DNA of 64,000 bases from Pontibacter sp. G13 (GCF_031851795.1 NZ_CP134696.1:1295576-1359575), one strand, 5' to 3'. Shown: positions 1,353 through 30,103, counted from the first letter of the stretch. The notes: a model not told the origin generated them from the letters alone. Made by a program: numbers and translations.

Positions 1353-2354
1353 ATGTCATTTGAATCGCAACATGTATTGCTGACCGGAGTAGCGGGCTTT
1401 CTCGGTTCGAACCTATTGACCAAGATGCTCGGTGACGGGCATCGGGTGACCGGAATTGACAACCTCTCCCGTGGATTGATGCGCAACATTGCCGCGCATG
1501 CAGACAATCCTAACTTCCAATTCATCGAAGCCGACATCACGGATGAAGCCACTTTCGAGGGTCTTTCCGACGATTTCGATGTAATTGTCCACCTTGCTGC
1601 GTTCAAAATCCCTCGCTACGGAAATGCCGTTGCGACCCTGACCATCAATGCCAAGGGTACCGAATTGGTACTTGAGTATGCCAAAAAATTGCACGTCAAG
1701 TGCGTATTGGCTTCCACCTCAGATGTGTATGGCATGAATCCAGAGTTGCCGTTCCGCGAAGACGGCAACTGTGTATTGGGCGACTCCAAAGTGCCTCGCT
1801 GGGGATATGCGGTATCCAAGCTCTTTGATGAGCACTTGGCCTTGGCCTACATGGAAGACCACGGATTCCCAGTGGTATTGCTCCGATTCTTTGGATCCTA
1901 TGGCCCACACCAACACCTTAGCTGGTGGGGAGGTCCTCAGTCTGTATTCATCGAAAAGATCCTCAAAGATGAGGTCATTCCGATTCACGGTGATGGCTCC
2001 CAGACGCGTACCTTCACTTATGTGGACGACACGGTCGCGGGTATCTACGCTGCCACCATGATGGAGGAAGCCAATGGCGAAATCTTCAATATCGGTGCAC
2101 ATCAAGAAATCACCATCCACGAATTGGCCAAACTTCTCAAGGAAATCTCCGGTACTCCCGGCGAATTGAAAGTGGAGTTCATTCCTTACGACCAAATCTC
2201 ACAAGGCCGTAAGTATCAGGATGTCATGCGCCGGGTGCCAGACACGTCCAAACTGACCCGCATGTTGGGCATCACTGCTCAGGTTCCCCTGGAAGAAGGG
2301 CTTCGCAGAACCTTCGAATGGCAAAAGGAAATCCTCTCCCAAGAACACGCATGA
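1353..2354 (+). CDS. NAD-dependent epimerase/dehydratase (SDR; UDP-glucuronate decarboxylase / ArnA C-terminal-like)
   Basis: 333 aa. N-terminal Rossmann motif LLTGVAGFLGSNL, extended-SDR architecture and a catalytic YxxxK region (YAVSKLF). Its stop overlaps the next start (ATGA at 2351-2354). Confidence 0.8.
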   Translation: MSFESQHVLLTGVAGFLGSNLLTKMLGDGHRVTGIDNLSRGLMRNIAAHADNPNFQFIEADITDEATFEGLSDDFDVIVHLAAFKIPRYGNAVATLTINAKGTELVLEYAKKLHVKCVLASTSDVYGMNPELPFREDGNCVLGDSKVPRWGYAVSKLFDEHLALAYMEDHGFPVVLLRFFGSYGPHQHLSWWGGPQSVFIEKILKDEVIPIHGDGSQTRTFTYVDDTVAGIYAATMMEEANGEIFNIGAHQEITIHELAKLLKEISGTPGELKVEFIPYDQISQGRKYQDVMRRVPDTSKLTRMLGITAQVPLEEGLRRTFEWQKEILSQEHA

Positions 2355-3694
2355 AAAAAATAGGAATTATTGGAGGTGGCTTTATGGGGATGACCCTCGG
2401 TCACAAACTCGCCAAAGCCGGTGCCTCCGTCCAAGTTTTTGAACGTTCCTCCCAGGTTGGCGGCCTCGCCACTTGGGAGGACTACGGTTCATTCACCTTT
2501 GACCGCTTCTATCATGTGATCCTGCCGGGTGACCAATTCCTGCTCGACATCATCCGGGATCTGGGGATTGAAGATCGGCTGGTCTGGCAGCAGACCTACA
2601 CCGGTTACTATGTGAATGAGCAGTTCTATGACATGAGTACCTCCATGGACTTCCTGAAATTCCCTCCTTTGGGGATGTTCAGCAAAGGCCGATTGGCACT
2701 AACCATCCTGAGAGGCTCCCGCATCTCGGACTGGAAATCTATGGAGCAGATGACCATTGAAGAATGGCTCGTCAAGATCGGAGGTCGCAATACTTTCGAA
2801 AAATTCTGGAAGCCGCTACTGCTCGCCAAGTTGGGCGAAAACTACAAACGTGTGTCAGCGGTATTCATCTGGACCTATATCAAACGCCTGTTCGAAGCAC
2901 GTGACAGCTCCTCTGCTGAGCGCGCGGAACACATGGGCTACGTTTCAGGGGGATATAAAACTGTCTTTGATGCGATGACAGCATCCGTAGAATCTCACGG
3001 AGGCACCATCCATACCAACGCGGCAGTCACTCAGATCGAACCTGCTCCGGAGGGCGGAATGCTGGTACATACAGAAGCTGGAAGTACCCATTTTGACAAG
3101 GTGATCTTCACCAGTCCAGTCAATGTCCTCCAAAAGGTGGCCGCACCCGGATTGATCGAGGTACAGCAAGATGGCAGAGAAGTGGAATATTTGGGGGTCG
3201 TGTGCATGGTTCTCAAGACCACCCGATCGTTCACTCCTTACTACGTACTCAATTTGGCGGATGACAAAGTGCCCTTTACAGGCGTCATTGGCATGTCTAC
3301 TTTGGTGGACAAAGCTGACACGGGAGGATACGAACTCACCTATTTCCCCAAATACGTGCTGTCGACAGACCCCATTCTCCAGAAATCCGATGAGGAACTG
3401 AGCGAATGGTTTATCCAAGGAGTCAAATCTCTCTATCCAGATCTGAAATCCGAGGAAATCGTCGAAGCCCATATCAACCGGGCCTTCAAGGTACAGCCTT
3501 TGCAGGTACTCAACTATTCAGACATCGTTCCCAAATCCAAGACGCTGCATCCTGATATGTACGTGGTCAACACTTCACAATTTGTGAACGATACTTTGAA
3601 TAACAATTCTGTAGCTCGACATATCCACAAATTTCTGGAAGCCCACCAGAAGTCGCTCCTATCCGAACAACCTGAAACTACCCACCAGCTCTGA
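2351..3694 (+). CDS. FAD/NAD(P)-binding oxidoreductase (amine-oxidase / protoporphyrinogen-oxidase-like fold)
   Basis: Dinucleotide-binding motif KKIGIIGGGFMGMTLG...FERSSQVGG at the N-terminus. The ORF track starts at 2318; the MKKIGIIGGG start at 2351 overlaps the upstream stop by 4 nt, which fits translational coupling. Confidence 0.7.
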   Translation: MKKIGIIGGGFMGMTLGHKLAKAGASVQVFERSSQVGGLATWEDYGSFTFDRFYHVILPGDQFLLDIIRDLGIEDRLVWQQTYTGYYVNEQFYDMSTSMDFLKFPPLGMFSKGRLALTILRGSRISDWKSMEQMTIEEWLVKIGGRNTFEKFWKPLLLAKLGENYKRVSAVFIWTYIKRLFEARDSSSAERAEHMGYVSGGYKTVFDAMTASVESHGGTIHTNAAVTQIEPAPEGGMLVHTEAGSTHFDKVIFTSPVNVLQKVAAPGLIEVQQDGREVEYLGVVCMVLKTTRSFTPYYVLNLADDKVPFTGVIGMSTLVDKADTGGYELTYFPKYVLSTDPILQKSDEELSEWFIQGVKSLYPDLKSEEIVEAHINRAFKVQPLQVLNYSDIVPKSKTLHPDMYVVNTSQFVNDTLNNNSVARHIHKFLEAHQKSLLSEQPETTHQL

Positions 3695-3721
3695 TCGGTC
3701 CCACTGGATCGGTTCGTTCTT

Positions 3722-4759
3722 ATGGGGAAGTCCCCGCCATTCCCCGGCGCAAGCCTGAATGCGGGTCGTTTCGAACATCACAACAGCTACCACAGCATGA
3801 GTAAACTCGTTGCCAGCTTGTCCTTGGACCTGGATGACCAGTGGACATATCTCAAGACCCATGGGGATGAATCATGGCAGTCTTATCCTAGCTACCTGAA
3901 TTATGCAGTGCCGAGAATCCTCGATTTTCTGGACAAGCATCAGACACCCATCACCTTCTTTATCGTCGCTCAGGACGCGGCATTCGACCACAACCACGAT
4001 GTGTTGAGAGAGATTGCTGTCCGTGGCCACGACATCGGCAACCACACCTTCCACCACGATCCGTGGCTGCATATCTACTCCGCCGAAGAAATTCATGAGG
4101 AATTGGGCCGTGCTGAGGAGCATATCGAGCGGGTCACAGGCGTGAAACCCAATGGCTTTCGCGGCCCGGGCTTCAGCTTTTCAGATACCGTCCTCAAGGT
4201 ATTGACAGAGCGTGGATATCGATACGATGCCTCCACTTTCCCCAATATCCTCAATCCATTGGCACGAGCTTACTTCCTCGCTACCAGCAATTTGAGTAAA
4301 GAGGAACGCGAGCAGCGAAAAGGCCTATTCGGAAGTTGGTCGGATGGATTGCGTCCCAACAAGCCCTATCAGTGGAACTCCAACGGTACACATCTGCTGG
4401 AAATCCCGGTGACAACCATGCCAATGATGAAAGTCCCGATCCACGCGAGTTACATCCTGTATCTAGGAACCTTCAACTATTCGCTGGCGATCTCCTACCT
4501 CAAATTTGCCATCAACATGTGCAAAATGACGAGAACGGAGCCTTCCATCTTGTTGCATCCACTGGATTATCTAGGATGTGACGATACCGAAGCACTTTCC
4601 TTCTTCCCTGCGATGCGGGTAAAGAGCGACCTGAAGATCCGGATCATGGATGAGATGTTCCGCCTACTCAACAACCATTTCGATGTGCGCACCATGGATG
4701 GCCACGCCGATCACATCATGAGTCAGGGCAAGCTCAAAGCCAAGTTGGTTCCGGCCTAA
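3722..4759 (+). CDS. Polysaccharide deacetylase (NodB/CE4 family; ArnD/LgmC-like)
   Basis: NodB motifs are present: TFFIVAQDAAFDH...RGHDIGNHTFHHD. Start is ambiguous (ATG 3722 or ATG 3797, MSKLV...). Confidence 0.75.
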   Translation: MGKSPPFPGASLNAGRFEHHNSYHSMSKLVASLSLDLDDQWTYLKTHGDESWQSYPSYLNYAVPRILDFLDKHQTPITFFIVAQDAAFDHNHDVLREIAVRGHDIGNHTFHHDPWLHIYSAEEIHEELGRAEEHIERVTGVKPNGFRGPGFSFSDTVLKVLTERGYRYDASTFPNILNPLARAYFLATSNLSKEEREQRKGLFGSWSDGLRPNKPYQWNSNGTHLLEIPVTTMPMMKVPIHASYILYLGTFNYSLAISYLKFAINMCKMTRTEPSILLHPLDYLGCDDTEALSFFPAMRVKSDLKIRIMDEMFRLLNNHFDVRTMDGHADHIMSQGKLKAKLVPA

Positions 4760-4836
4760 CCCTTCCCAAACCCTCGATCCCCCTATTCCCCGGTCATCTG
4801 GGGAAGTCATTATTGAAAGCAGATTACCTCGCGAAT

Positions 4837-5268
4837 ATGAATCGTCAAGACCAGATGATGGAGTCGGCCGAAAAGCCTCGGTCCGATTTTTACTTGGGGT
4901 TGCTGTATCTGGGTGTTGATATCCTGATCAGTGTAGCGGCGCAGTTTGTCCTCAAATACGCCATGAATGGGCTGGGAGAATTTCCGACCGGAGCTGATGC
5001 CGATGTACTCGGGTATTTTTGGAATATGGTGAATCTTCCCATTTTCATCGGACTCGGGTTGTATGGAGTAGGCCAAGTGGTGTGGCTGCTTTGCCTCCAG
5101 AAATTGGATCTCAGCTTTGCCTATCCTGTAGCCACTTTGCAACACGTCTTGATTTTTGTGGGAGCTTGGTACCTATTCGATGAACAAATTAGTTTCCTCC
5201 GAATGGTGGGTCTAGGCATCATCATGTTAGGCGTAATCCTCATTTCAACAGATAAAACAGCATCATGA
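4837..5268 (+). CDS. Small membrane protein, ArnE/ArnF-like (SMR/EamA-type) flippase subunit 1
   Basis: About 140 aa with 4 predicted TM helices (LGLLYLGVDILISVAAQFVLKYAMNGLG...). Paired with the next gene through an ATGA overlap (5265-5268). The ORF-track start 4813 is TTG; the first ATG is 4837. Confidence 0.6.
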   Translation: MNRQDQMMESAEKPRSDFYLGLLYLGVDILISVAAQFVLKYAMNGLGEFPTGADADVLGYFWNMVNLPIFIGLGLYGVGQVVWLLCLQKLDLSFAYPVATLQHVLIFVGAWYLFDEQISFLRMVGLGIIMLGVILISTDKTAS

Positions 5269-5627
5269 GCGCACTGATTTTTGCAATTGCCAGTGTATTG
5301 ATCATGGCTTCTGCACAGTTTTTGTTTAAAGGAGGGTTAATAGATCAACCTGAGATCCCGGAAAGCCCTTCACCTTTCTACCGAATCATAGATTTGGTAT
5401 TCCGTCCCAAGATTTTGGGCGGTCTCTTACTCAGCGGCGTTGGAGCCGGCCTGTGGTTGCTTGCACTATCGGACCTCGAGCTGAGTTATGCATTTCCCTT
5501 TTTGAGCCTCAACTACATCATCATTCCCATCGGAGCGGTGGTGCTGTACGGAGAACGGATTGGAAAAGTCCGCAAAATGGGAATTGGCCTTATCTGTGTC
5601 GGAATCCTATTCATTGCGTTTAGTTAA
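5265..5627 (+). CDS. Small membrane protein, ArnE/ArnF-like flippase subunit 2
   Basis: 120 aa with 4 TM helices (IFAIASVLIMASAQFLFK...). Translationally coupled to the preceding paralog. Heterodimeric SMR-like pairs of this kind are typical of Und-P-aminosugar flippases. Confidence 0.6.
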   Translation: MSALIFAIASVLIMASAQFLFKGGLIDQPEIPESPSPFYRIIDLVFRPKILGGLLLSGVGAGLWLLALSDLELSYAFPFLSLNYIIIPIGAVVLYGERIGKVRKMGIGLICVGILFIAFS

Positions 5628-5952
5628 TGAATAGCATTTTTTCGAAATTTTCATTATTGGAACTTTCAGTCCTATCTTCACCCTTGATCATCGTCTAGAC
5701 ACCTGTAGCAATTTGACTATTAATGCTTCATTACTAGCCGATGAAACGGGCAGGACTCAGTTTCTTTCCAGTTTTTGGTAATTTGACTTTTGGTGAAAGC
5801 CTCATGAAGGTCAGCCAGTTTTAGCGTGAAATCGGTGATTTACTTTATTCGGAGTATCCATACTCCAACCGCTTGACGTGGGCTTCCCATGTCTCATGCT
5901 GGGATTTGCATCTTCATTAGGCCAACTACACAAAGCCGTTCAGGTGAAACAC

Positions 5953-7092
5953 ATGGAGATCAAGGAAATTGCACCTAGCCAAATGTCCACAAATGGCGTT
6001 CATGAGCAGCCCAAGACCAAGCTGCCCATGATCACCGTTATCACCCCTGCCTACAACGAAGAAGCCATCATCTCCAAGAATCTTCAGCGCCTCTGTGATT
6101 ATATGGAGCGCTTTGAGAATGACTATCGATGGGAGATCCTCATCGTCAATGATGGTTCAAAAGACAAAACCGCCAAGCTCGCCGATGCATTCGCCCAAGA
6201 ACGCAAGGAGGTAAGGGTCATTCACCACGCCTTCAACCGCAATTTGGGGGGCGCACTTCGTACGGGTTTTGCCAATGCGCTGGGCGACTATATCATCGTC
6301 ATGGATCTCGACCTCAGCTATGCGCCTGAGCATATCGAGACGATGATGAAGAAAATCACCGATACCGGAGCCGATATCGTGGTTGCCTCGCCCTATATGC
6401 CTGGTGGGAAAAATACCAAGGTGCCCAAATTCCGTTTGTTGCTCAGCAAGGTCGTGAACAGGTTCATGCGCCTGACTGCGAATAGCGACATTCATACCTT
6501 CACCAGCATGGTACGGGTATATCGGAGCGATTTCCTCCGCCAGCTCAACCTCAAATCCAATACTTACAGCATTATGCCAGAAATCATCTACAAGTCTCTC
6601 ATCTTGAGGGGACATGTAGAGGAGATTCCGGCGCATTTGGATTGGAGTTTCCAAGAACAAGCCGTAGGGCGTACATCCAGCATTCGGATTTTCAAGGGAA
6701 TCTTGGCAGGTCTGATGTCGGGGTTCATTTTCCGTCCCTACGCATTCTTCATGTTCACGGGATTCCTATTGCTCCTCGTATCGATGTATCTGATTACGTG
6801 GATCTTCATCAACACCATCGGGATCATTCCTGAACTGGCAGTTGGGGAGACCTTCTTCGATGATCGATTCAGCCGAGCTGTTGCAGAGGCTTTCAACAGA
6901 CGCCCTCACTCCTTCATTGTGGGCGGTGTCACGCTGATCGTATCACTGCAGTTTCTTGGCATTGGATTCCTCTCACTCCAGAACAAACGCTACTTCGACG
7001 AGCTGTTCCACATCAATACTACGAATTATCGTAACCTATTGAATCTACAGCTTGGACAGAATACCGATAAGAAGGACGACCTACATGCGTAA
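5953..7092 (+). CDS. GT2 polyprenyl-phosphate glycosyltransferase (ArnC/LgmA/GtrB-like) with C-terminal TM domain
   Basis: GT-A motifs ITVITPAYNEE...ILIVNDGSKDKT...DLDLS and a DXD, followed by two C-terminal TM helices as in ArnC/DPM1. The ORF-track start 5878 is GTG; 5953 is the first in-frame ATG. The true start could be as late as 6028. Confidence 0.8.
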   Translation: MEIKEIAPSQMSTNGVHEQPKTKLPMITVITPAYNEEAIISKNLQRLCDYMERFENDYRWEILIVNDGSKDKTAKLADAFAQERKEVRVIHHAFNRNLGGALRTGFANALGDYIIVMDLDLSYAPEHIETMMKKITDTGADIVVASPYMPGGKNTKVPKFRLLLSKVVNRFMRLTANSDIHTFTSMVRVYRSDFLRQLNLKSNTYSIMPEIIYKSLILRGHVEEIPAHLDWSFQEQAVGRTSSIRIFKGILAGLMSGFIFRPYAFFMFTGFLLLLVSMYLITWIFINTIGIIPELAVGETFFDDRFSRAVAEAFNRRPHSFIVGGVTLIVSLQFLGIGFLSLQNKRYFDELFHINTTNYRNLLNLQLGQNTDKKDDLHA

Positions 7093-8314
7093 GCTTCTCA
7101 AATTCATTCCTTTTCTTGTCCTGTACATCCTGATTATCGCCATTTTCGGAAAGGAAGACCTCAAGGGAGACGAAGGTAGATATATCTATTATGTAACGAA
7201 TCTGCTTCAGGGATTCTATAGTCCGACAGAAAATCCATTTCTGCGAAATGGGCCGGGTTATCCACTGTTTCTATTGCCATTTTACGGGATCGGCTTTACG
7301 GTGGGAATGCTCAAATACATGAATGCAGCCTTGATGGTGGGCGCTTTGTATTTTTTCGAAGCCACCGCCAAACGTCTCGTCTCTCCCAAGATTGCTTGGC
7401 TGGCGACGGTTGCACTGGGACTTTACTTTCCCATCTACCGATGGTTGGTCCTACTCTCACCCGTGGCTTTGTCGATCTTCCAGGTGGTCATGGTGATGTA
7501 CGGAGTTGCCAAAATCTGCGAATCCCGGAAATGGGACTTGCGGACCATTGGCTGGACAGGAGCCATGCTCGGATTTCTTGTGCTCACCAAATACATATTC
7601 GGGATGGCCATCATGGCCGCCAGTGTATTGGGAGCTGTAGCATTCGTGGTATGGAGGAAAAAGAAGCTATTCTCCCTACTATCCGTCATGGGGATCGCAT
7701 TTGCCTGCTGTATTCCCTATCTCATCTATACCTATTCCCTCACCGGACGGACGATGTATTGGGGTACCAATGGAGGGGAACAGCTCTATTGGATGTCCTC
7801 TGATATGGAAAATGAATGGGGCAACTGGTATGGCCATACCGAAGTGCTGGAAAGGTTGGAGCCCAAGCTGAGTGCCAATCACACCGCCTTCTATCGGGAA
7901 GTCAAAACGCTCTCCCACATGGAGATGAATGACCGATTCAAGGAACAGGCCATCGCCAATATCAAAGCGAATCCCACGAATTATATCAAGAATTGGCTCG
8001 GAAACATGAGCCGTCTGTGGTTTGGGTTTCCCAATTCCCACAAACAACAAAGCCTGAAGGCCTATTTCTACCTCATTCCCAACATGTTCCTGGTGGTATT
8101 CCTGCTGCTGAGCGTCATCCCTTTGTGGAAGCAGTGGCACCGAATCCCCCTGTACCTGTGGGCTTGGGCCACGTTCTTTGCGATCTATCTGGGCGGGACC
8201 AGTATTGTCACTGCCATCCCTAGATATTTGCTGATCGTGATGCCCTTCCTCATCTTGTGGCTAGCATACGTTGCCGACCGGTTAATTACCCTCAAGATTC
8301 ATCCGCCAGAATGA
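7085..8314 (+). CDS. GT-C family glycosyltransferase (ArnT/PMT/LgmB-like polyprenyl-phosphate-sugar-dependent transferase)
   Basis: Polytopic membrane protein. The N-terminal loop DLKGDEGRY fits the ArnT/PMT family. There are many TM segments throughout. The in-frame ATG at 7085 overlaps the GT2 stop by 8 nt (ATGCGTAA). Confidence 0.7.
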   Translation: MRKLLKFIPFLVLYILIIAIFGKEDLKGDEGRYIYYVTNLLQGFYSPTENPFLRNGPGYPLFLLPFYGIGFTVGMLKYMNAALMVGALYFFEATAKRLVSPKIAWLATVALGLYFPIYRWLVLLSPVALSIFQVVMVMYGVAKICESRKWDLRTIGWTGAMLGFLVLTKYIFGMAIMAASVLGAVAFVVWRKKKLFSLLSVMGIAFACCIPYLIYTYSLTGRTMYWGTNGGEQLYWMSSDMENEWGNWYGHTEVLERLEPKLSANHTAFYREVKTLSHMEMNDRFKEQAIANIKANPTNYIKNWLGNMSRLWFGFPNSHKQQSLKAYFYLIPNMFLVVFLLLSVIPLWKQWHRIPLYLWAWATFFAIYLGGTSIVTAIPRYLLIVMPFLILWLAYVADRLITLKIHPPE

Positions 8315-9477
8315 AAGACCGTTTCAAAGTCATGAGCTTGGTAGGTGCCAGGCCTCAGTTCATCAAACTAGCTCCCTTGTGCCGTGCGATCGAGCAGTTC
8401 AATGCGCGAGGAGGTGTACAAATCGATCACTTCATCGTGCATACCGGACAGCACTACGATCACGGTATGTCTGATATCTTCTTCGAGGAACTTGAAATTC
8501 CTCGCCCTGACCTCAATCTCGGGGTTGGTTCGGGCAAACATGGCGCCCAGACCGCAGAAATGCTCAAAGGTACCGAAGACATCCTCTTGCAGGAAAAACC
8601 GGATATCTTGGTCATTTTTGGAGATACCAACTCCACAGCTGCAGGCGCACTTGCCGCAGCCAAACTTCACATTCCCATTGCCCATATCGAGGCGGGATTG
8701 CGCAGTTTCAATCGAGATATGCCCGAGGAGATCAACCGCGTCATGTCGGATCACCTCTCGGACATTCTCCTCGCTCCTACCCCGACTGCCATCGAAAATC
8801 TCAAGAGAGAAGGGTTGGCAGATCGTACAGAAAGCAGTGGAGACATCATGTATGATACCGTGATGTTTAACACGAAGCTGGCTCGCCAAAAGTCGACACT
8901 GATCCAAGATCTCCAACTCGAAGGGCAGTCCATCGCCTTGGCGACCATTCACCGCGCGGAAAACACCAATGATACCCAGCGATTGGAGACCCTGTTGAAC
9001 AAGCTCAATGAGTTCGCAGACCATCATCTTCCTGTGGTATTCCCGATGCATCCGCGTACCAAGAACATGCTGCCAAACGTCCTGCCGGATTGGAAGCCGA
9101 GCCCCAATCTTCGGGTGATCGAGCCAGTGGGATATCTAGATATGTTGGCCCTGATCGACCATGCGAGACTTGCCTTGACGGACTCTGGGGGATTGCAGAA
9201 AGAAGCCTTCTTCCTGAACACGCCTTGCATCACGTTGCGAGACGAGACTGAATGGGTAGAAACCATCCAAGCTGGCGGCAACCGTCTAGCTGGAGCTGAT
9301 CCTGAGCTGATCGATGCAGCCATAGCAGATTGGGCGCAACGTTGGGCAGATCAGACACCAGATTTCACGGAAGCGATCCATGAGGCATTTGGTCGTGCTG
9401 ATTCAGCCGAAAAGACTATTGATGCCATTGTCAGATTTCTAGAAAAATCTCTTCCAGAAACCGAAAAGGTCGCATGA
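8311..9477 (+). CDS. wecB: UDP-N-acetylglucosamine 2-epimerase (non-hydrolysing)
   Basis: KVMSLVGARPQFIKLAPL...HTGQHYD...GDTNST...HIEAGLRS are signature blocks of WecB/MnaA. The MKDRF start at 8311 forms an ATGA overlap with the upstream gene. Confidence 0.85.
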   Translation: MKDRFKVMSLVGARPQFIKLAPLCRAIEQFNARGGVQIDHFIVHTGQHYDHGMSDIFFEELEIPRPDLNLGVGSGKHGAQTAEMLKGTEDILLQEKPDILVIFGDTNSTAAGALAAAKLHIPIAHIEAGLRSFNRDMPEEINRVMSDHLSDILLAPTPTAIENLKREGLADRTESSGDIMYDTVMFNTKLARQKSTLIQDLQLEGQSIALATIHRAENTNDTQRLETLLNKLNEFADHHLPVVFPMHPRTKNMLPNVLPDWKPSPNLRVIEPVGYLDMLALIDHARLALTDSGGLQKEAFFLNTPCITLRDETEWVETIQAGGNRLAGADPELIDAAIADWAQRWADQTPDFTEAIHEAFGRADSAEKTIDAIVRFLEKSLPETEKVA

Positions 9478-9574
9478 TCCACCATTCATGAAAATGACCA
9501 TTTTCACGAGAATACTTATCCGGATTGATTAAATTTATAGTGAGTAAATCTTTGGAAAACAATCTCCTTTCAGC

Positions 9575-10528
9575 ATGAAACTCTTTGGACTCACCGGAGT
9601 AGCCGGCTATATCGCACCTCGCCATCTACAAGCCATTCACGATACGGGCAACAAGCTCGTAGCCGCCATGGACCCGCACGATTCAGTGGGGATCTTGGAT
9701 CGGTATTTCAAGGAAGTGGCATTCTTCACCGAATACGAGCGTTTCGACCGCCACTTGGAGCGCCTTCGCCGTGATCCTGAACGTGATGCCATCGACTTCT
9801 TGAGCATTTGTACACCGAACTATCTACATGATGCCCATATCCGATTGGCGCTTCGTCTCGGTGCCAATGCGATCTGCGAAAAGCCTTTGGTGGCCAATCC
9901 TTGGCAGCTAGATGCATTGGAGCAACTCGAAGCAGAATCTCCCGGCAAAGTCTACTCTATCCTGCAATTGCGGGTGCACCCTTCTCTGATCGAGCTGAAA
10001 AAACGACTCGAAGCACAAAAGTCCGACAAGAAATACGACATCGTCCTGACCTACATTACCTCACGGGGTCCCTGGTATATGTATTCCTGGAAGGGAAATG
10101 AGGACAAGTCCGGAGGAATCGCCACCAATATTGGCATCCACTTCTTCGACATGCTCAGCTGGCTCTTTGGAGGTGTACAGAAGAGCGAAGTCTACCTCTC
10201 CGAAAAATCCAAGATGAGTGGCTTCCTCGAACTTGAAAACGCCAATGTCCGCTGGTTCCTCTCCATCGACAAAACCGATCTTCCGGAAGAAATCAAAGCC
10301 AAAGGACAGCCGACCTATCGCTCTATCACCTTTGATGGCGAAGAGATCGAATTCTCAGGTGGATTCACCGACTTGCACACGCGCATGTATGAAACCATTT
10401 TGGATGGGAAGGGCTTCGGAATCGAAACCGCAAGACCTTCGATCGAATTGGTCAATGGGATTCGTCAGGCAGAATTGTCACCCATCAACTACGGTCATCC
10501 TTTTTTGATGGAAAAGGTCAATAGCTAA
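9575..10528 (+). CDS. Gfo/Idh/MocA-family oxidoreductase (WbpB-like UDP-HexNAc(A) 3-dehydrogenase)
   Basis: The N-terminus MKLFGLTGVAGYIAPRHLQAIHDTGNKLVAAMDPHDSVG closely follows the WbpB/GnnA pattern (GAAGYIAPRH). Confidence 0.75.
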   Translation: MKLFGLTGVAGYIAPRHLQAIHDTGNKLVAAMDPHDSVGILDRYFKEVAFFTEYERFDRHLERLRRDPERDAIDFLSICTPNYLHDAHIRLALRLGANAICEKPLVANPWQLDALEQLEAESPGKVYSILQLRVHPSLIELKKRLEAQKSDKKYDIVLTYITSRGPWYMYSWKGNEDKSGGIATNIGIHFFDMLSWLFGGVQKSEVYLSEKSKMSGFLELENANVRWFLSIDKTDLPEEIKAKGQPTYRSITFDGEEIEFSGGFTDLHTRMYETILDGKGFGIETARPSIELVNGIRQAELSPINYGHPFLMEKVNS

Positions 10529-10556
10529 TTGTCATTGGCCGCTAGTAACCAATTAT

Positions 10557-10595
10557 CTGGGCTATCTCTGCAAGGAGGTAGCCCAGATTTTTTTG
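10557..10595 (+). terminator. Rho-independent terminator after the Gfo/Idh gene
   Basis: 8-bp stem CTGGGCTA / TAGCCCAG (10557-10564 and 10579-10586) with a 14-nt loop, followed by a T-run (10588-10594). Confidence 0.5.
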
Positions 10596-10686
10596 CAGAA
10601 CTGGAGGAAATGGACTTGATCCCCAGACCGTGCAGGATTGATGCGTTTCTGAAATTCACGTATTTTCCCAAAAATCTCCTATTCGC

Positions 10687-11607
10687 ATGAACGCTTCCCT
10701 ACGCTGGGGCATAGACCTCGGTGGTACCAAAATCGAAGGAGTCGTCATCTCTCCTGACTCCCCTACCCAACCGTTGGCTAGACTTCGAGTCCCCACAGAA
10801 CAGCAGCAAGGCTATCGCCATATCCTCGATCAGATCGAAAAACTCGTCCAGCTTCTCATCGAGGAAGTCGGAAGTACACCAGATCGGATTGGGATTGGTA
10901 CCCCTGGGGCACTGGACCCAGATAGTCAAACCCTCAAAAACAGCAACACACTTTGCTTGATCGGGAAACCCCTCAAAGCTGATCTTGAGGCTCAATTGGG
11001 TGTTCCCTGCATCCTCGCCAATGACGCCAACTGCTTCGCATTGGCAGAAGCCAAGCTTGGGGTTGTACCTGCACAAGTTCCTCACGCTGACGTAGTGTTT
11101 GGAGTGATCATGGGGACAGGCGTCGGAGGCGGGGTGGTCGTGGGGGATCGAGTTCTGCACGGTAGACATGGCATTGCAGGAGAATGGGGCCACAACTTCT
11201 TGGATGAATCCGGCGGACCTTGCTATTGCGGGCGCGTGGGCTGTGTGGAAACCATCCTCTCTGGTCCATCGCTGGAAAGATTCTACCGCACCCGGTCTGG
11301 CCAGAATCGCCGTCTTCCAGAAATCATCCAACGAGCGAGAGCAGGCAATGATCCGATTGCGATCCTCACCTTGGATCGATTGGTCACCATGTTTGGGAAG
11401 GCTTTGGGGCCCATCATCAATATTCTTGATCCAGATGCCATCGTCATCGGTGGCGGCGTCGGAAATATCTCCGAATTGTACGATCTGGGGAGAGACCATC
11501 TAGCGCGCCATGTCTTCAATCCGCACATGGCCACCAAAATCCTGAAGCCACAACTGGGAGATAGCGCAGGGGTATTCGGAGCGGCCATGCTCGTTGCAAA
11601 TTCTTGA
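10687..11607 (+). CDS. ROK-family sugar kinase (glucokinase / N-acetyl-hexosamine kinase-like)
   Basis: WGIDLGGTKIEGVVI at the N-terminus. The ROK zinc motif CYCGRVGCVE is present. 306 aa. Confidence 0.8.
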   Translation: MNASLRWGIDLGGTKIEGVVISPDSPTQPLARLRVPTEQQQGYRHILDQIEKLVQLLIEEVGSTPDRIGIGTPGALDPDSQTLKNSNTLCLIGKPLKADLEAQLGVPCILANDANCFALAEAKLGVVPAQVPHADVVFGVIMGTGVGGGVVVGDRVLHGRHGIAGEWGHNFLDESGGPCYCGRVGCVETILSGPSLERFYRTRSGQNRRLPEIIQRARAGNDPIAILTLDRLVTMFGKALGPIINILDPDAIVIGGGVGNISELYDLGRDHLARHVFNPHMATKILKPQLGDSAGVFGAAMLVANS

Positions 11608-11656
11608 GTAGAAGTTGCAAGCGGAGGACAATTCACTAGAAAGTCCACGGAGTATA

Positions 11657-12787
11657 ATGTTTATTGACAGGTATTTTCCCGCAAAAAGTCGTGGAAATAA
11701 AACCCAAAAACATTGGCTCCCAACCATGCATTCATCCTCACAACCGCCCAAACTTGCTGATGCCCACTTGGTTCACTATCTGAAATTTGCGCTTTGGGTG
11801 GTGTTTCTTGTATTGCCGCTTTTGTTGCTAGACGGGTCTCTACCGCCCTATTGGGGACAAACCTCTTGGACACAAAAGGTCGCCAGACTCGATGAGATCG
11901 ACTGGAAACCGAATCGCCTATTCTTGGGCACCAGCATCACCTATATGCAGGTCGACCCTTCCACCATAGATCGGGTGATCGGAGACAATCTAGGGTCCTT
12001 CAACTTGGGGGCTACAGATGCCGAGGTCGTGGAAATGATCGGATTTGCCAAGTGGATCATCCGTCAACCGCAGGCCGCTGGCAAAACCCTCATGTTGGAA
12101 GTCAGGCCTTGGGACCCCATCAGCAAGCGTCCCACTCGTCAGGAGAAGAAGTATTTCTACAGGCCGGACAACTGGCGTCTGACCCAATCGCTCATCGGGC
12201 AAACAGCGGAAACGAATTTTTGGGAGAAGACCCGACAATCTGCCTATCACAACGCTGGGTATCTCCAGAGTTACTTCCGGGCGGGACTCCTTCGACAATC
12301 CGTCAAGTTTCACTGGATCAAGGATCGCTACACGAACCGGTTCATCGGTGCGGGCCTAGACGGTTTTGTACCCTTGGACCTAGCCACGCTCGATGATTAC
12401 GCCACTAATGTAGGTGCTCGGGAGTCTCACGAATTCTATCATTCCGATACCACCGTATTCGATGCCCTTCGTTCCAATGGTTTGCCGATCCGAGAGGAAT
12501 GGAATCCCGTCAACGAAGCCTATCGCGATGAGCTGCTAGCGCTATTCACCTACGCAGAAATGAATGGCGTGCGTTTGATGCTCCTTATCCCTCCCCGATT
12601 GCCCCGAGCAGCGTATCGAGACCTTTTGCCGCTGGCATACAGCTTTCCTCCAACGCGGGTGGTGCAATTGGCTGATCCGGCGGAATTTCCCGAGTTTTAT
12701 GAAACCCGTTATTCATTTGACCAGATCCACCTGAATGCCGAGGGAGCAGGACTATTTTCCGATCGACTCGGAAGCTTGTTGCGGTAA
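11657..12787 (+). CDS. Membrane-anchored SGNH-hydrolase-like protein (candidate DltD/AlgJ-like partner of the adjacent MBOAT)
   Basis: N-terminal TM helix (FALWVVFLVLPLLLL). There is a GDS-like block I variant FLGTSITY and a clear SGNH block V, DQIHLNAEGAGLFSDRL, near the C-terminus. The ORF-track start 11615 is TTG; ATG candidates are 11657 and 11726. Confidence 0.45.
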   Translation: MFIDRYFPAKSRGNKTQKHWLPTMHSSSQPPKLADAHLVHYLKFALWVVFLVLPLLLLDGSLPPYWGQTSWTQKVARLDEIDWKPNRLFLGTSITYMQVDPSTIDRVIGDNLGSFNLGATDAEVVEMIGFAKWIIRQPQAAGKTLMLEVRPWDPISKRPTRQEKKYFYRPDNWRLTQSLIGQTAETNFWEKTRQSAYHNAGYLQSYFRAGLLRQSVKFHWIKDRYTNRFIGAGLDGFVPLDLATLDDYATNVGARESHEFYHSDTTVFDALRSNGLPIREEWNPVNEAYRDELLALFTYAEMNGVRLMLLIPPRLPRAAYRDLLPLAYSFPPTRVVQLADPAEFPEFYETRYSFDQIHLNAEGAGLFSDRLGSLLR

Positions 12788-12889
12788 ATAGTGCTGTCTG
12801 CTCGCTGCGAATAATGGATACTATCGGCCCTCGAAGCCCTCTTTTGGTTGCTTCGAGGGCCGTTTTTGTTAGGTGCCTGATTCATGAAG

Positions 12890-13110
12890 ATGTGCGGCTG
12901 GTAGGTGCGGCGTCAGGGATAGGAGGGGCGAGCCTTCAGGCGAGGTCCGAGGCAACTTGGGGAAATCGGGAAAGGCCTAGATGAAGTGCGCAAAGGACTG
13001 AACTGGAACCGCCCAAATCCGAGGACGGGAGCTTGCGTACCCCCGCATAGCCCGGCCCGGCGACTCTTTGGCTAGGCGGATAGCTCCCAGCCTGATCGCC
13101 GGGAGACGCC
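12890..13110. repeat. Copy (partial) of a dispersed ~200-300-bp repeat element family
   Basis: Shares the blocks GATGTGCGGCTGG.AGGTGCGGCGT.AGG, GGCGAGGTCCGAGGC and ATCCGAGGACGGGAGC...GTACCC...CCCGGCGACTC with 44990-45200 and 57390-57600. Lies between convergent genes. Confidence 0.6.
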
Positions 13111-13114
13111 CTCA

Positions 13115-14551
13115 TCAGAATTGGAAATATTGGAAGGGAACTTCGGCTTGATCGGCCATGGCCAATGTCACATATATCAAAATCGTGACCAATCCCCAAG
13201 ATTGCCAAGGCTTGAGAGTGGAGAGCCATTGATCGAACATGCGATTTTTCATGCGAATATGGAGCTGGTCCATCACCAACAGCAGGAATCCTCCCAAGGC
13301 GATGTGCTTGCCGATGTCGTCCCAAGCGGGGACCGATCCAGCAAACATCCACATCCGGTCCAGCATGGTCCACATGGTATCGAGATTGGGAACTCGGAAG
13401 GCCATCCCGGTAAACTGCGAGATGAACATGGTGATGGCGGTACCTCCGACGTTGAACCACATCCGAGCTTTGCCTTCGAGCTGATTGCGCCAAGGAGCCA
13501 TACGACGCATGATGAAGTACTCGATCAGCACATAGATGCCGTTGGCGACGCCCCAGATCATGAAATTCCAGCCTGCGCCATGCCAAATTCCCGTCAGGAG
13601 GTAGATGACGAACAATCCGCCATACCATCGGATTCTGGACTTGCCGCGGCCTGCAATGGGGAAAAAGACATAATCCCGCCACCAAGCGATCAGGGTCATG
13701 TGCCAACCGGACCAGAATCGATTTTTGGAGGGAGCAAAGTAGATCCGATTTTCGAAGTTGGGCGACAGTTCCACCCCGATCATCCGGGCACTTCCGATGG
13801 CCATGTCCGTATAGGCGCTAAAATCGCAGAACACCTGAAACCCGAACATGAGCATCCCCATCCAGATCCCAAATCCCTGATAGGATTCTGGGTCAGCGTA
13901 AACGGCATCCACGACCATGGCAAGCCTATCTGAGATGACGATCTTCTTGAACAGGCCCCAGACCATGAGCTGCATGCCCGCGACAAGGTTGCTGTCCTTG
14001 AACTTCACGGGACGCTCCAGTTGGCCATAGAGATGGGAGTATCGCTCGATCGGTCCTGCCACCAATTGGGGAAAGAAGCTCACAAACAGCGCAAAACGCC
14101 CTAGATGACGCGTGGGCTCCACTCGCTTGCGGTAGACATCGATGGTATAGCTCAATGTCTGGAAGGTGTAGAAGGAAATCCCCACCGGCATGAGATAGGT
14201 GTCTATCTGAGGGATGTAGGAGAGGTGCAGGGCCTCGAAAAGCCCGTTTCCCACATGGAATGCCGGACTGAGATATTTGAAGGTGAAAAGCAATCCCAAG
14301 TTGGTCCCCAGACTGAGTAGCAGCAGGAGATTGCGATACAGCGGCCTCTCCGTTTTTCCCAGCCAGATCCCCACGGCAAAATCCACCAAAGTAGAGCCGA
14401 GGATCAAGGTCAGGCACCAGGGATTCCAGACCGCATAGAACCCGTAGCTGACCAACAATAGCCAAAGCCACCGACCTCTATGGGGAATGAGATAGAAGAC
14501 CGCCACTGCCAATGGCAGGGCGATCAAGTATTCGAGGGAGTCAAATTGCAT
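13115..14551 (-). CDS. MBOAT-family membrane-bound O-acyltransferase (DltB/AlgI-like)
   Basis: 478 aa and polytopic. Has the typical MBOAT N-terminus YLIALPLAVAVFY, conserved FWRRWH-like regions (WSGWHMTLIAWWRDYVFFP) and a conserved His. Confidence 0.85.
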   Translation of the reverse strand: MQFDSLEYLIALPLAVAVFYLIPHRGRWLWLLLVSYGFYAVWNPWCLTLILGSTLVDFAVGIWLGKTERPLYRNLLLLLSLGTNLGLLFTFKYLSPAFHVGNGLFEALHLSYIPQIDTYLMPVGISFYTFQTLSYTIDVYRKRVEPTRHLGRFALFVSFFPQLVAGPIERYSHLYGQLERPVKFKDSNLVAGMQLMVWGLFKKIVISDRLAMVVDAVYADPESYQGFGIWMGMLMFGFQVFCDFSAYTDMAIGSARMIGVELSPNFENRIYFAPSKNRFWSGWHMTLIAWWRDYVFFPIAGRGKSRIRWYGGLFVIYLLTGIWHGAGWNFMIWGVANGIYVLIEYFIMRRMAPWRNQLEGKARMWFNVGGTAITMFISQFTGMAFRVPNLDTMWTMLDRMWMFAGSVPAWDDIGKHIALGGFLLLVMDQLHIRMKNRMFDQWLSTLKPWQSWGLVTILIYVTLAMADQAEVPFQYFQF

Positions 14552-14563
14552 GTCTATTCAGGC

Positions 14564-15790
14564 TCAAGCAGGCACGATCCGCGCAGGGAGATGGGCATAT
14601 CCGCGCGGGTTGAAGGTGTCTTGACGAATGGGATCGGCAGTCAATTCGAAGCGTTGGCTGCGGTCCATCAATTTGGAAATGGCCCATTTGGCTTGTTTGC
14701 GGGCGAGCCAAGCACCCGAGCAGATCCGTTCCCCTCTGCCGAAGCCCAGATTCCCCTTGGAGGTTCGGGAAAAATCCAACTGATCGGGGTGCTCATAGCG
14801 ATTTGCATCCCGGTGAGCGGCAGCTACGCACAGGACGATTCCGTGCCCCTTCTTAATGATTTTGCCGCCGTATTCGGTGTCTTCTTTGGCGATCCGTCCC
14901 AAAAGCGGAACCGAGGAGTCATATCGCAGGCATTCCTCGATGGCCAAGGCTGTAGCTTTGCGGTGATTGCGCAGCCATTCGGTCTGCTCTGGATGGGTCA
15001 TCATCAATTGCAGGGAATTGCCGATGAGGTGGACGGTCGTCTCCTGCCCAGCAAAGAACAGGAAGGCGCAGAAGCCTGCAATCTCCTGATCGGTGAGCTT
15101 CTCTTCGGATTGATCATTCAGCTTGATGAGGTTGCTGAGCAGATCGGGCTGGGGAGATTTCCGCTTTTCCTCGATCCAAGGGAGTAGGTATTCCACCACT
15201 TCCTCCATGCCTTCATTGAGCATCTCGAAAGACCGCATAGTTCTGCGATACTCAATGATCGGGTACAGCTTGAAGGAGATTTTCTTCAATTGAACCCAAT
15301 CCTCCGCAGGAAGCCCCATCACGCCCAACAAGGTCAGAATCGGAAGCATCCCCGCGAATTCCGTCATGAGATCCACCTGATCAAAATCCCACTGGTCCAT
15401 CATGTGATCGATCCGCTTCTTGACGGATTCGTCCACAGAACGGTCATTCCAAGCTTGGTGGAGCCATTCGCGGAGTTTGGGATGACGAGGCTTGTCGATG
15501 AATGGAAGGAACATCTTGCCTGCGAGCTTCATTCCCTCCATGACTTTGCCTTTGCCCTTGAGATATTCATAGGTGACATCAAACTCATCCGTACGGGTAA
15601 GGGGTCCGAGATTCTGATCGGCAAATGCGCGGAACACATCCTCATACCGCGTGAGGATCCATTCTCCATGCATAGATCGGTGGACTGGGTCTTGCTCGCG
15701 GATGGTTTTCAGGTAGGGATAAGGATTGGCCCGAAAGTCCGGATCGAAAGGGTCCCATCTCAACTGGGAAGCTTTGTATGCAGTGGACAT
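14564..15790 (-). CDS. Cytochrome P450
   Basis: Heme-binding loop FGRGERICSGAWLA (FxxGxRxCxG). EXXR is present (ECLRYD). 408 aa. 12-nt gap to the MBOAT gene. Confidence 0.85.
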   Translation of the reverse strand: MSTAYKASQLRWDPFDPDFRANPYPYLKTIREQDPVHRSMHGEWILTRYEDVFRAFADQNLGPLTRTDEFDVTYEYLKGKGKVMEGMKLAGKMFLPFIDKPRHPKLREWLHQAWNDRSVDESVKKRIDHMMDQWDFDQVDLMTEFAGMLPILTLLGVMGLPAEDWVQLKKISFKLYPIIEYRRTMRSFEMLNEGMEEVVEYLLPWIEEKRKSPQPDLLSNLIKLNDQSEEKLTDQEIAGFCAFLFFAGQETTVHLIGNSLQLMMTHPEQTEWLRNHRKATALAIEECLRYDSSVPLLGRIAKEDTEYGGKIIKKGHGIVLCVAAAHRDANRYEHPDQLDFSRTSKGNLGFGRGERICSGAWLARKQAKWAISKLMDRSQRFELTADPIRQDTFNPRGYAHLPARIVPA

Positions 15791-15841
15791 GTATTCGACT
15801 AATTAACTTGAATGTGTGAACACAGGGGGTAATCAGCGGAA

Positions 15842-16111
15842 TTAGGCGGTCTGTGATTTGTTGACGACGTTTTTGAGCAGGTAATTCACTACCCCTTCAA
15901 TGGAGGGAAAGTCCCAGAAGAGGGTCGGTGAAAGGTTGGTTCCGAGCAGGTCTTCCAAGTCTGCTGTCAAGCTTACCGCTGCGATGGATTCGAGATTGTA
16001 GCGGGCAAATGGCTTGTCGGTCTCGATCTTGTCCTTGGGCATGCGCGTTTCTTCGGCCACATGGTCGATCATCCACTGGATGAGTTCTTCGCGAGTGGGT
16101 TGGTTGGTCAT
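15842..16111 (-). CDS. Acyl carrier protein (stand-alone phosphopantetheine-binding protein)
   Basis: 89 aa four-helix ACP-like sequence with a likely phosphopantetheinyl serine in NLESIAAVSL. Sits 11 nt downstream of the FAAL gene. Confidence 0.7.
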   Translation of the reverse strand: MTNQPTREELIQWMIDHVAEETRMPKDKIETDKPFARYNLESIAAVSLTADLEDLLGTNLSPTLFWDFPSIEGVVNYLLKNVVNKSQTA

Positions 16112-16122
16112 GATTGGGAGGG

Positions 16123-17823
16123 TTAAGTGTTGGTTTCAAAAAACAGTTCTGTAGAGGTTTGGGACTTCTGCCAAAGGTCTCGGCAGGCAAATCGCATGAG
16201 CTTTCCACTGGACGTCTTCCGAATCGTACCGGGAGGAACCAGCGCAATATCTTTCAAAGCGATACCATGAGTCTGGTAGACTGTGGTTTGTATTTTTTGG
16301 CGTACTTCGTCGGCCCGATCTTCTGAGCGGAGTTCTGCCATGACGACCACCCGTTCTTCCTGCCCATCCACCACAGGGAATGCAGCTACATTTCCGGTCC
16401 GGATGTCGATATGGCAATCGCTAGCCGTCTTCTCGATGTCTTGTGGATAGTGGTTTTGACCGTTGAGGATGATGAGATCCTTGATTCTGCCGGTGATGTA
16501 CAGCCATCCATCCGCCAAAAATCCGAGATCTTCAGACCTGAGGTAGGGACCTTGGCCATCCAAGGTTTCTGCATGGAAAATTTCATCCGTTTTGTCAAGA
16601 TCTCCATAGTATCCCTGAGCGACAGAATCTCCTGAGATCCAAATTTCGCCGACTTCCCATTCTGGCAATACACTGCGAGATTTGGGATCTACGATCTTGA
16701 CATCAAAGCCCGAAGCGATCCGCCCAGAACTCACGAAAGACCTTCCCGCTTGCCCCGATTGAGCCTTGACTGCCCGATGCTGTTCTTGGAGCAATTCGAA
16801 TTGCAGGTCCAGGACCTTGGGCTTGAAATCCCGTCCCGTGCTAGAGACCATGAGCGTGCTCTCAGCCATCCCGTAGCAGGGCAACAATTGATCGTATCGA
16901 AATCCGCAAACTTGAAATGCTTTGGCAAAACGGTTCAACGTATCCGCCCAGATCGGTTCCGCACCGTTGTAGAGAACGTCTAGACTACTGAGGTTCAATT
17001 CGGCTTTTTGGGTGTCCTTGACCTTGCGGGCACACAATTCGAAGGCGAAATTGGGACCTCCTGTACAGGTGATCCGATATTTGGAAATGGCCTGAAGCCA
17101 TCGTACAGGTCTAGCAATGAAGTCCTCTGGCGCCATGATATGACCGGGGATCCCCTTGGCCAAAGGCCCCAGCACACCATCCACCAACCCCATGTCGTGA
17201 TAATGCGGTAACCAGGTCAAGTAGCGGCTTCCCGCATGGGTGCCAAAGGACTTGGCGATGGTCTTGCAATTTTCCACCAAGTTCTGGTGGGTGACAATTA
17301 CCCCTTTCGGTGAACCCGTAGAGCCAGAGGAATACTGGAGCACCGCAGGACTGGCAGGATCTAGCTTTGGGCTTTTTTCCCCCGTAGACTCGAGTTTTCT
17401 GAGCGACTCGTGCCAAAGGAGTTCAGCTCCATTGGCACTCAATTGGGCGCGAATTCCCTGAAATAATTCGGAGTCGGGCTCCAAATCTGTCAGGACCAAT
17501 TTTGCTCCACTATGGGTGAGGGTTTTGGCGAGGCGATTGACCTGTGAAAGGCGGTAGGGCAAAGGAAGGGGCACCGCAATCCGGCCTGCCCAAAAACAAG
17601 CCAGTAGCGCAGTGACAAAATCGATCCCAGCACGGTACAACAGCACGACCGGCTGCTGAAATTCGCTGTGATGCCCCAATCTCCCAGCAAGATGGGCAGT
17701 ATCTGATTCGAGTTGACGGTAAGTGATCGAGCGTCCCTCCAGTTCAGGGAAGTCGATCTTTTGATAGGCGAGGCCATCGGGATTTCGTGTGGCCCATTTT
17801 GTGAGGATTCGTTTCCAGTGCAT
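16123..17823 (-). CDS. Fatty acyl-AMP ligase (FAAL-type adenylation enzyme)
   Basis: LQYSSGSTGSPKGVIVTHQNL (AMP-binding core) and WLPHYHDMGLV are present; the latter is characteristic of the FAAL/FadD32 subfamily rather than CoA ligases. 566 aa. Confidence 0.8.
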   Translation of the reverse strand: MHWKRILTKWATRNPDGLAYQKIDFPELEGRSITYRQLESDTAHLAGRLGHHSEFQQPVVLLYRAGIDFVTALLACFWAGRIAVPLPLPYRLSQVNRLAKTLTHSGAKLVLTDLEPDSELFQGIRAQLSANGAELLWHESLRKLESTGEKSPKLDPASPAVLQYSSGSTGSPKGVIVTHQNLVENCKTIAKSFGTHAGSRYLTWLPHYHDMGLVDGVLGPLAKGIPGHIMAPEDFIARPVRWLQAISKYRITCTGGPNFAFELCARKVKDTQKAELNLSSLDVLYNGAEPIWADTLNRFAKAFQVCGFRYDQLLPCYGMAESTLMVSSTGRDFKPKVLDLQFELLQEQHRAVKAQSGQAGRSFVSSGRIASGFDVKIVDPKSRSVLPEWEVGEIWISGDSVAQGYYGDLDKTDEIFHAETLDGQGPYLRSEDLGFLADGWLYITGRIKDLIILNGQNHYPQDIEKTASDCHIDIRTGNVAAFPVVDGQEERVVVMAELRSEDRADEVRQKIQTTVYQTHGIALKDIALVPPGTIRKTSSGKLMRFACRDLWQKSQTSTELFFETNT

Positions 17824-30076: not shown

Positions 30077-30103
30077 CAGCTGGGTTACTCTTGGGGGAAT
30101 CCC

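Follow-up and report, generated by a model that had tools for sequence, protein, structure and literature searches.

A candidate carrier-protein-fed MBOAT-SGNH acylation system beside an Arn-like gene cluster in Pontibacter sp. G13

Gene content of the locus

The window analysed here, a 64-kb stretch of DNA from Pontibacter sp. G13 (Cytophagales, Bacteroidota), carries a minus-strand operon encoding a fatty-acyl-AMP ligase (FAAL; 16123..17823, 566 aa), a stand-alone acyl carrier protein (ACP; 15842..16111, 89 aa), a cytochrome P450 (14564..15790, 408 aa) and an MBOAT acyltransferase of the PatA/AlgI type (13115..14551, 478 aa), in that order and separated by 11, 51 and 12 nt. Convergent to this operon, across a spacer of 327 nt, lies the plus-strand gene of a membrane-anchored, DltD-like protein with a predicted SGNH fold, here called P5 (11726..12787, 353 aa), and directly upstream of P5, on the same strand, is an Arn-like sugar-modification cluster (1353..11607). 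On re-reading, the five open reading frames (ORFs) and the three gaps matched exactly those of a first-pass annotation, which had proposed a Dlt-like acylation module at this locus. The P5 frame, open from 11615 to 12787, also ends where that annotation placed its stop; the start that it gave, ATG 11657, is an in-frame upstream ATG, and ATG 11726 is favoured by the NCBI call (353 aa) and by the N-termini of about 47 aligned homologues. The pattern of five genes is not due to chance, because the ORFs are long, the matches to hidden Markov models (HMMs) are strong and P5 has 311 full-length relatives at E<=1e-10. What the five genes do is inferred here from gene content and context.

The first gene of the operon encodes a ligase which, by sequence comparison, is a FAAL-group enzyme. 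It contains the motif WLPHYHDMGL and matches the Pfam AMP-binding domain over residues 8-406 (E 8e-67), together with a DIP2-like C-terminal domain (AMP-dom_DIP2-like). Against NCBIfam it scores 396-403 bits with FAAL subfamilies and 427 with the FAAL loading region of polyketide synthases (PKS) and non-ribosomal peptide synthetases (NRPS), compared with at most 167 for acyl-CoA ligase models and 97 for the DltA model; every one of these scores lies under the curated equivalog cut-offs (476-560 for DltA), which indicates membership at the family level only. Its best relatives in the PDB are 7r7e (370 bits), the Legionella protein 3kxw (320), FadD32 (283) and the Escherichia coli FAAL 3pbk (267), with DltA at 84. 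Relative to the DltA-like enzyme of the ANL superfamily encoded at an Algibacter locus described below, it has about 23 extra residues (VLDLQFELLQEQHRAVKAQS..GQA) between YGMAE and GRI. This insertion is at the FAAL-specific position, is common to the fused FAAL-ACP proteins of related loci and falls within a gap-free alignment to the FAAL 7r7e. The model scores, the PDB relatives and the insertion agree with the FAAL assignment made at first pass and rule out a DltA-like amino-acid activator.

The ACP covers the whole Pfam PP-binding model (positions 1-67 of 67, E 2.4e-12), and its predicted phosphopantetheine serine, the presence of which had been in question, is found in NLESI, opposite the LES of the fused ACP domains in the alignment. 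The surrounding sequence, YNLESIAA...FWDFPSI, resembles that of the ACP domain in MBOAT-linked fused FAAL-ACPs (YPLESIDA...FWALPS).

The P450 (Pfam p450, E 5e-27) has intact haem-ligand and oxygen-activation motifs, namely FGRGERICSG as the loop of the cysteine ligand (FxxGxRxCxG), EECLR as the ExxR motif and AGQETT with the acid-alcohol pair of the I-helix, on which it appears to be a functional monooxygenase. Among solved structures its best relative is P450 BioI in complex with an acyl-ACP (3ejb, 180 bits, aligned over 17-384), a similarity that gives only a hint of an ACP-bound substrate.

The MBOAT (Pfam MBOAT, E 1.5e-22) has two histidines, H284 and H324 (in WHGA), that are invariant in an alignment with 13 homologues (n=14), and it ends in FQYFQF (residues 473-478, codons at 13118..13135 on the minus strand), of which F473, Y475, F476 and F478 are invariant in the same alignment. 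This tail corresponds to FxYxxF, the acyl-shuttle motif, of which the tyrosine is acylated in DltX and PatA and which is carried on two helices that DltB lacks (PMC12148441). The AlphaFold2 (AF2) model of the MBOAT (pLDDT 78.9) matches DltB best (6bug, TM 0.63/0.72), followed by HHAT and PORCN at 14-16% identity, and extends beyond the DltB-matching core by about 60 C-terminal residues with helices at 410-434 and 448-465; the low pLDDT of the tail fits a flexible segment. Against the DltB equivalog model it scores 119 bits, the cut-off being 375. The earlier comparison of this protein to DltB therefore holds for the family and the closest fold and fails for the details of the mechanism, in that the FxYxxF motif is fused and DltX is absent; by sequence and model, the MBOAT is of the PatA/AlgI type with a fused shuttle and not of the DltB type. 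At the level of gene content it differs from PatA/AlgI-type pathways, which have no carrier protein, because its operon encodes an ACP and a FAAL. The combination of a fused shuttle with carrier and ligase genes in one operon thus brings together the two designs described for MBOAT-SGNH systems, which are acetyl-CoA users (PatAB, AlgIJX and WssHI) and the carrier-dependent Dlt pathway with D-alanine and DltX (PMC12148441).

P5 has a single N-terminal hydrophobic helix (residues 10-38 in the model) and no match in Pfam or NCBIfam, even at E 10, the Pfam DltD model included. A word-index search of a 5.8-billion-protein index returned only P5 itself, and a profile of its family against PDB sequences gave noise only (ribosomal protein eS7, E 0.13). 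An exhaustive HMMER search found 768 relatives among representative sequences, 311 of them at E<=1e-10, which are about 345 aa long and align over their full length at 21-30% identity. An alignment of 47 sequences shows no variation at G68, S70, N93, G213, P290, H335 or G340 and conservation of D332 in at least 90%, so that the GTSITY (G68, S70) and DQIHLNAEG (D332, H335, N337, G340) motifs fall on invariant or near-invariant family columns. The predicted triad consists of S70 in block I (GTS, family consensus GSSR; 11933-11935) and D332 and H335 in block V (both within 12719-12730), and N93 is the block III asparagine. Three of the 47 sequences match DUF1574 (best E 1.4e-5) and one matches DUF459/PatB, whereas P5 itself matches neither; both are members of the SGNH clan (PMC9487903), Pfam CL0264. 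The AF2 model of P5, made from 16 sequences (pLDDT 83.4, pTM 0.83), was compared with the PDB by Foldseek, in which the top 11 matches are all DltD (E 1e-4 to 7e-3), followed by PatB. On this modelling P5 has an SGNH fold closest to that of DltD, an assignment made through profile and fold comparison only because P5 has no curated-family match. The SGNH motifs reported at first pass are thus seated on the conserved serine and Asp-x-x-His of a family, and the conservation and the fold match rule out their being a chance occurrence.

The P5 gene is followed, 38 nt past its stop and inside the convergent spacer, by an intrinsic-terminator-like hairpin with a U-tract (12825..12870, plus strand), consisting of a stem at 12825-12862 and then UUUUUGUU. 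The hairpin was found by folding, its loop being longer than the limit of the consensus terminator scan, and has a dG of -31.4 kcal/mol (z -5.05), with none of 200 shuffles folding as well.

Recurrence in other Bacteroidota and neighbouring genes

The closest homologues of the MBOAT are only 41-44% identical to it and come from metagenome-assembled genomes (MAGs) of Bacteroidota. In each of the seven loci sampled from the 23 best matches (P0004, P0006, P0008, P0015, P0018, P0023 and P0024), a fused FAAL-ACP of about 670 aa ends 2-10 nt before the MBOAT start or overlaps it, and the MBOAT is followed by a partner of about 305 aa with no confident Pfam match. These partners share GxSR and D-x-x-H motifs, and profile comparison shows their homology to the P5 family (hhalign 97.2% with E 3e-11, covering the N-terminal 93 columns; HMM E 2e-10 to 3e-4). 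The order FAAL-ACP, MBOAT, partner is therefore conserved in all seven sampled loci of the closest MBOAT clade, and with it the four features on which the first-pass annotation had made its proposal depend (the FAAL insertion, the ACP serine, the gene order and the SGNH alignment) are all in place. Its five-part module survives as a core of FAAL-ACP, MBOAT and SGNH-like partner; the P450 is not conserved with this core, and P5 falls outside the subfamily to which the FAAL-linked partners belong. Among the loci compared, a split ACP, a convergent partner and a P450 were found in the window genome only.

As a negative control, 80 MBOAT loci listed from the genome collection, which are generic MBOATs among the matches listed and do not include the FAAL-linked clade, were examined, and none has a FAAL or P450 nearby. 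The MBOATs at ranks 25 and 67, from Anaerolineae and Rhodothermus, also lack a FAAL, giving none in 82 more distant loci. A neighbour-joining tree of 88 MBOATs groups the FAAL-linked proteins as one monophyletic clade (bootstrap 100/100) and places the window MBOAT as its sister, at 49/100. A scan of metagenome DNA for FIYF[D/E]F followed by a stop, a tail present in the FAAL-linked MBOATs, gave 80 loci, of which 58 were chance matches and 22 were MBOAT ends; none had a FAAL-ACP or P450, and the tail variant therefore does not mark the FAAL-linked clade specifically. A metagenome scan with the P450 gave 46 pattern matches and no relatives.

Of the 87 MBOAT loci listed, 52 have a P5-family HMM match in the co-directional ORF directly downstream of the MBOAT and one other has such a match upstream, which makes the P5 family the usual partner of these MBOATs. 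In the 64 kb of the window there is one P5-family gene and one MBOAT. A close member of the P5 family (P0280) was also found with no MBOAT within 7 kb (L088:5559-8101), after PID_CTERM and exosortase (EpsH-like) genes in a polysaccharide locus with Wzz, ABC and sulfotransferase genes, and the family may also work apart from an adjacent MBOAT.

The FAAL-linked loci are set among sulfotransferases, family 4 glycosyltransferases (GT4) and ABC-2 transporters, and these neighbours point to glycan or glycolipid acceptors. Two of the loci (L085:1379-7998 and L213:3856-7991) have genes for a FabA/ApeI-like dehydratase, a ketosynthase and a stand-alone ACP directly upstream of the fused FAAL-ACP and MBOAT, flanked in L085 by sulfotransferases, which suggests chain extension or desaturation on the carrier before export. 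Another arrangement (L001:5985-14592, also in L002 and L003) has two tandem pairs of FAAL-ACP and MBOAT with one partner of about 300 aa after the second pair; these tandem pairs adjoin sulfotransferases, a GT4-sulfotransferase fusion and an ABC-2 transporter.

Further MBOAT arrangements were seen among other loci. One of the 80 distant loci, from an Algibacter sp. MAG (L057:8001-16137, JBNKOE010000021.1), is a second kind of carrier-linked MBOAT locus in Bacteroidota, in which an MBOAT, a 310-aa partner, a FemAB-like GNAT protein, a second MBOAT (ending in FIYFQF), a 366-aa ORF, a ligase and a carrier follow one another. The ligase is a 503-aa DltA-like AMP-binding enzyme without the FAAL insertion and the carrier an 84-aa PP-binding protein, so that by sequence the locus looks like Dlt-like amino-acylation with a fused shuttle in a Gram-negative bacterium. 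Flavobacterium proteolyticum (L060:3198-10324) has three MBOAT-partner pairs in a row, and Flavobacteria bacterium BAL38 (L053:4799-10309) two MBOATs with three partner-family ORFs, in both cases without ligase or carrier.

The Arn-like cluster upstream of P5 comprises, by Pfam, an NAD epimerase/dehydratase, an amine oxidase, a polysaccharide deacetylase, two small EamA-like membrane proteins, a family 2 glycosyltransferase (GT2), a UDP-GlcNAc 2-epimerase, a Gfo/Idh/MocA oxidoreductase and a ROK kinase, the gene of which ends 118 nt before P5; the module thus adjoins an envelope-modification cluster, as had been noted at first pass. The amine oxidase (2318-3694, plus strand), a flavin enzyme encoded between the NAD epimerase/dehydratase and the polysaccharide deacetylase, is unusual for an Arn-like cluster. 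Between the GT2 and the UDP-GlcNAc 2-epimerase is a 420-aa protein (7052-8314, plus strand) with at least seven hydrophobic segments, GDEGRY after the first of them and no Pfam match, which on sequence grounds may be a divergent GT-C/ArnT-like transferase. Elsewhere in the window, the minus strand encodes a 1658-aa protein (25100-33092) that contains DUF7902, an AAA domain and, at E 2e-186, DUF3686 ('ATPase involved in DNA repair'). Two proteins of 226 and 727 aa, neither of them matching Pfam, are encoded immediately upstream in the same orientation. An Rce1-like membrane protein of the CAAX protease family (21867-23663, minus strand) adjoins a LytTR-domain regulator.

A proposed pathway and the alternatives

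The gene content and its recurrence are consistent with a carrier-protein-fed MBOAT-SGNH system acting across the envelope, which would attach a fatty acyl or hydroxy-fatty acyl group to a glycoconjugate outside the cytoplasm, for which the product of the Arn-like cluster is one possibility; we favour this reading with modest confidence. The FAAL would adenylate a fatty acid and load it as a thioester onto the stand-alone ACP, and the presence of both genes in the operon implies a long-chain, ACP-bound donor. The P450 would oxidise the ACP-bound chain, most likely by hydroxylation, which is the default chemistry of this class of P450. The MBOAT would take the acyl group from the acyl-ACP at the cytoplasmic face and, by way of its conserved histidine, pass it to Tyr475 of its own FQYFQF at the periplasmic face, from which Ser70 of P5 would accept it for delivery to an extracytoplasmic acceptor. 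A glycoconjugate is the probable acceptor, and it may come from the polyprenyl-phosphate-sugar pathway of the neighbouring Arn-like cluster, a candidate source. Tailoring of acyl-ACP fits the P450 by analogy, since the dehydratase, ketosynthase and ACP genes that precede the FAAL-ACP in two relatives make variable tailoring seem part of the design of the module.

Several observations weigh against this reading and are taken here together with the alternatives. What the sequences and models show is the identity, motifs and fold of each protein and the recurrence of the FAAL-ACP, MBOAT and partner core; each chemical step is inferred from these, as are the length of the chain, what the P450 does to it, whether this MBOAT pairs with P5 and which acceptor is used. 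The P450 raises objections of its own. It was found neither in the seven sampled FAAL-linked relatives nor near the 82 more distant MBOAT loci listed, and falls outside the conserved module; the ORFs next to the module were seen to include no ferredoxin or reductase partner; and BioI leads only marginally, the next relatives being PksS (172 bits) and vitamin D hydroxylases (about 166-167).

The alternative that survives best, and that we nevertheless consider unlikely, is that two unrelated functions adjoin each other. In that case the MBOAT, alone or with P5, would use acetyl-CoA to O-acetylate a surface polysaccharide in the ordinary way of AlgI/AlgJ or PatA/PatB, and the FAAL, ACP and P450 would make a separate lipid or secondary-metabolite building block and only share the operon. 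MBOAT-SGNH pathways other than Dlt are acyl-CoA users with no carrier protein, and the fused shuttle of the window MBOAT is the same as that of the acetyl-CoA users (PMC12148441). The lack of a FAAL at the 82 more distant loci listed is in line with such a separation. The window FAAL scores 370 bits to a PKS loading FAAL and 306-318 to the fused FAAL-ACPs, so that the ligase may have been recruited separately, and the grouping of the window MBOAT with the FAAL-linked clade has a bootstrap of only 49/100. Against a separate block stand the gap of only 12 nt between the P450 and MBOAT genes and the finding, among ORFs annotated up to about 33 kb of the window, of no PKS, NRPS, condensation enzyme or other acyltransferase that would consume the acyl-ACP. 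The FAAL-ACP also lies directly beside the MBOAT in all seven sampled closest relatives, in varied genomic contexts.

We consider it quite unlikely that P5 serves the Arn-like operon instead, for instance in an esterase or deacylase role or as an acyltransferase with a different acyl supply, leaving the FAAL-ACP-P450-MBOAT operon to do without an SGNH partner or to rely on one from another part of the 7.5-Mb genome. P5 is convergent to the MBOAT at a distance of 327 nt, is co-directional with the Arn-like genes, 118 nt after the ROK kinase, and has its own terminator. It may be the last gene of that operon, which would at once link the acylation module to an envelope modification of the polyprenyl-phosphate-sugar type and weaken the case for P5 being dedicated to the MBOAT. 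P5 also falls in the subfamily of about 345 aa that accompanies ordinary MBOATs, outside the partner subfamily of about 305 aa at FAAL-linked loci, and some of its relatives have no MBOAT nearby (in the exosortase/Wzz/ABC locus L088 and in L089). The pairing is argued for by the position of the P5 family directly downstream of the MBOAT in 52 of the 87 loci listed, by the expectation that an MBOAT with a fused shuttle hands off to an SGNH protein (PMC12148441) and by P5 being the sole member of its family in the window and abutting the sole MBOAT.

A third alternative, itself a variant of the favoured pathway, in which the P450 would cleave the ACP-bound chain in the manner of BioI to an omega-carboxy (dicarboxylic) acyl-ACP and a charged half-ester rather than a hydroxy-fatty acyl group would be exported, draws on the match to BioI with acyl-ACP (3ejb, 180 bits) and is very improbable, given a margin of a few bits over PksS and the vitamin D hydroxylases and hydroxylation as the default chemistry of the class.

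Beyond the G13 locus, the preferred reading of a carrier-fed pathway can be widened to a family of envelope lipidation systems in Bacteroidota, which would be a bacterial counterpart of Hedgehog, Wnt and ghrelin acylation. In such systems a long and sometimes tailored chain, activated by a FAAL and carried by an ACP in place of CoA, would pass through an MBOAT with a tyrosine shuttle and be transferred by a DltD-like protein to a periplasmic or outer-membrane glycoconjugate, with the G13 locus as a P450-equipped member placing an oxidised chain on an Arn-type sugar modification. This wider proposal is held tentatively, at somewhat short of an even chance. No publication describing FAAL-linked MBOAT/DltB systems was found in the literature within reach of the search, many subscription papers lying outside it. 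A FAAL- and ACP-fed MBOAT with a fused tyrosine shuttle, if confirmed, would imply that bacteria export long-chain or oxidised acyl groups to extracytoplasmic glycans or glycolipids, changing surface hydrophobicity, permeability and phage or host recognition in Bacteroidota, and would provide a tractable bacterial model for the movement of long acyl chains by MBOATs. It would also give a testable function to a large protein family without a Pfam model (768 representative sequences) and to MBOATs loosely annotated as DltB or AlgI.

Comparison with known acylation systems

The nearest characterised parallel is DltABCD(X), the D-alanylation system for teichoic acids in Gram-positive bacteria, which has the same logic of adenylating enzyme, carrier, MBOAT and membrane-anchored SGNH protein and which supplies the best solved fold matches for both P5 (DltD) and the window MBOAT (DltB). 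It differs in several respects. DltA is specific for D-alanine and about 500 aa long, whereas the window ligase is a FAAL (97 bits to DltA against 396 or more to FAAL models). DltB has no shuttle and works with the microprotein DltX, whereas the window MBOAT carries its shuttle on extra C-terminal helices and no DltX is present. Dlt has no P450, and the host of the window is a Gram-negative member of Bacteroidota without teichoic acid.

The O-acetylation systems PatA/PatB, AlgI/AlgJ/AlgX and WssH/WssI use acetyl-CoA and are reported to have no carrier protein (PMC12148441), in contrast to the window operon with its FAAL and ACP. Their partners are encoded co-directionally, whereas P5 is convergent.

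The FAAL-ACP/MBOAT operons of Bacteroidota MAGs, from Phaeodactylibacter and others (L001-L004, L085-L087, L213 and L214), share with the window the FAAL insertion, the ACP motifs and an SGNH-like partner, and are found in glycan clusters with sulfotransferases, GT4 enzymes and ABC transporters. Their FAAL and ACP are fused into a protein of about 670 aa, their partner, shorter by about 50 aa, is encoded co-directionally, and they have no P450, the window locus differing on each of these points. Their MBOATs are annotated in the sources only as DltB or AlgI.

P450 BioI (CYP107H1) acts on a fatty acyl chain tethered to an ACP, which is the kind of substrate proposed for the window P450. BioI is an enzyme of biotin synthesis unconnected with any MBOAT, and the likeness between the two enzymes is barely above that to other CYP107-like enzymes.

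The eukaryotic-type MBOATs HHAT, PORCN and GOAT move long or medium acyl chains from the cytosolic side to secreted substrates, as is proposed for the window MBOAT, and HHAT and PORCN are its next-best fold matches after DltB (14-16% identity). They differ in using acyl-CoA as the source of the acyl chain and in acting directly on a protein substrate, with neither a tyrosine shuttle nor an SGNH partner between the donor and the acceptor.

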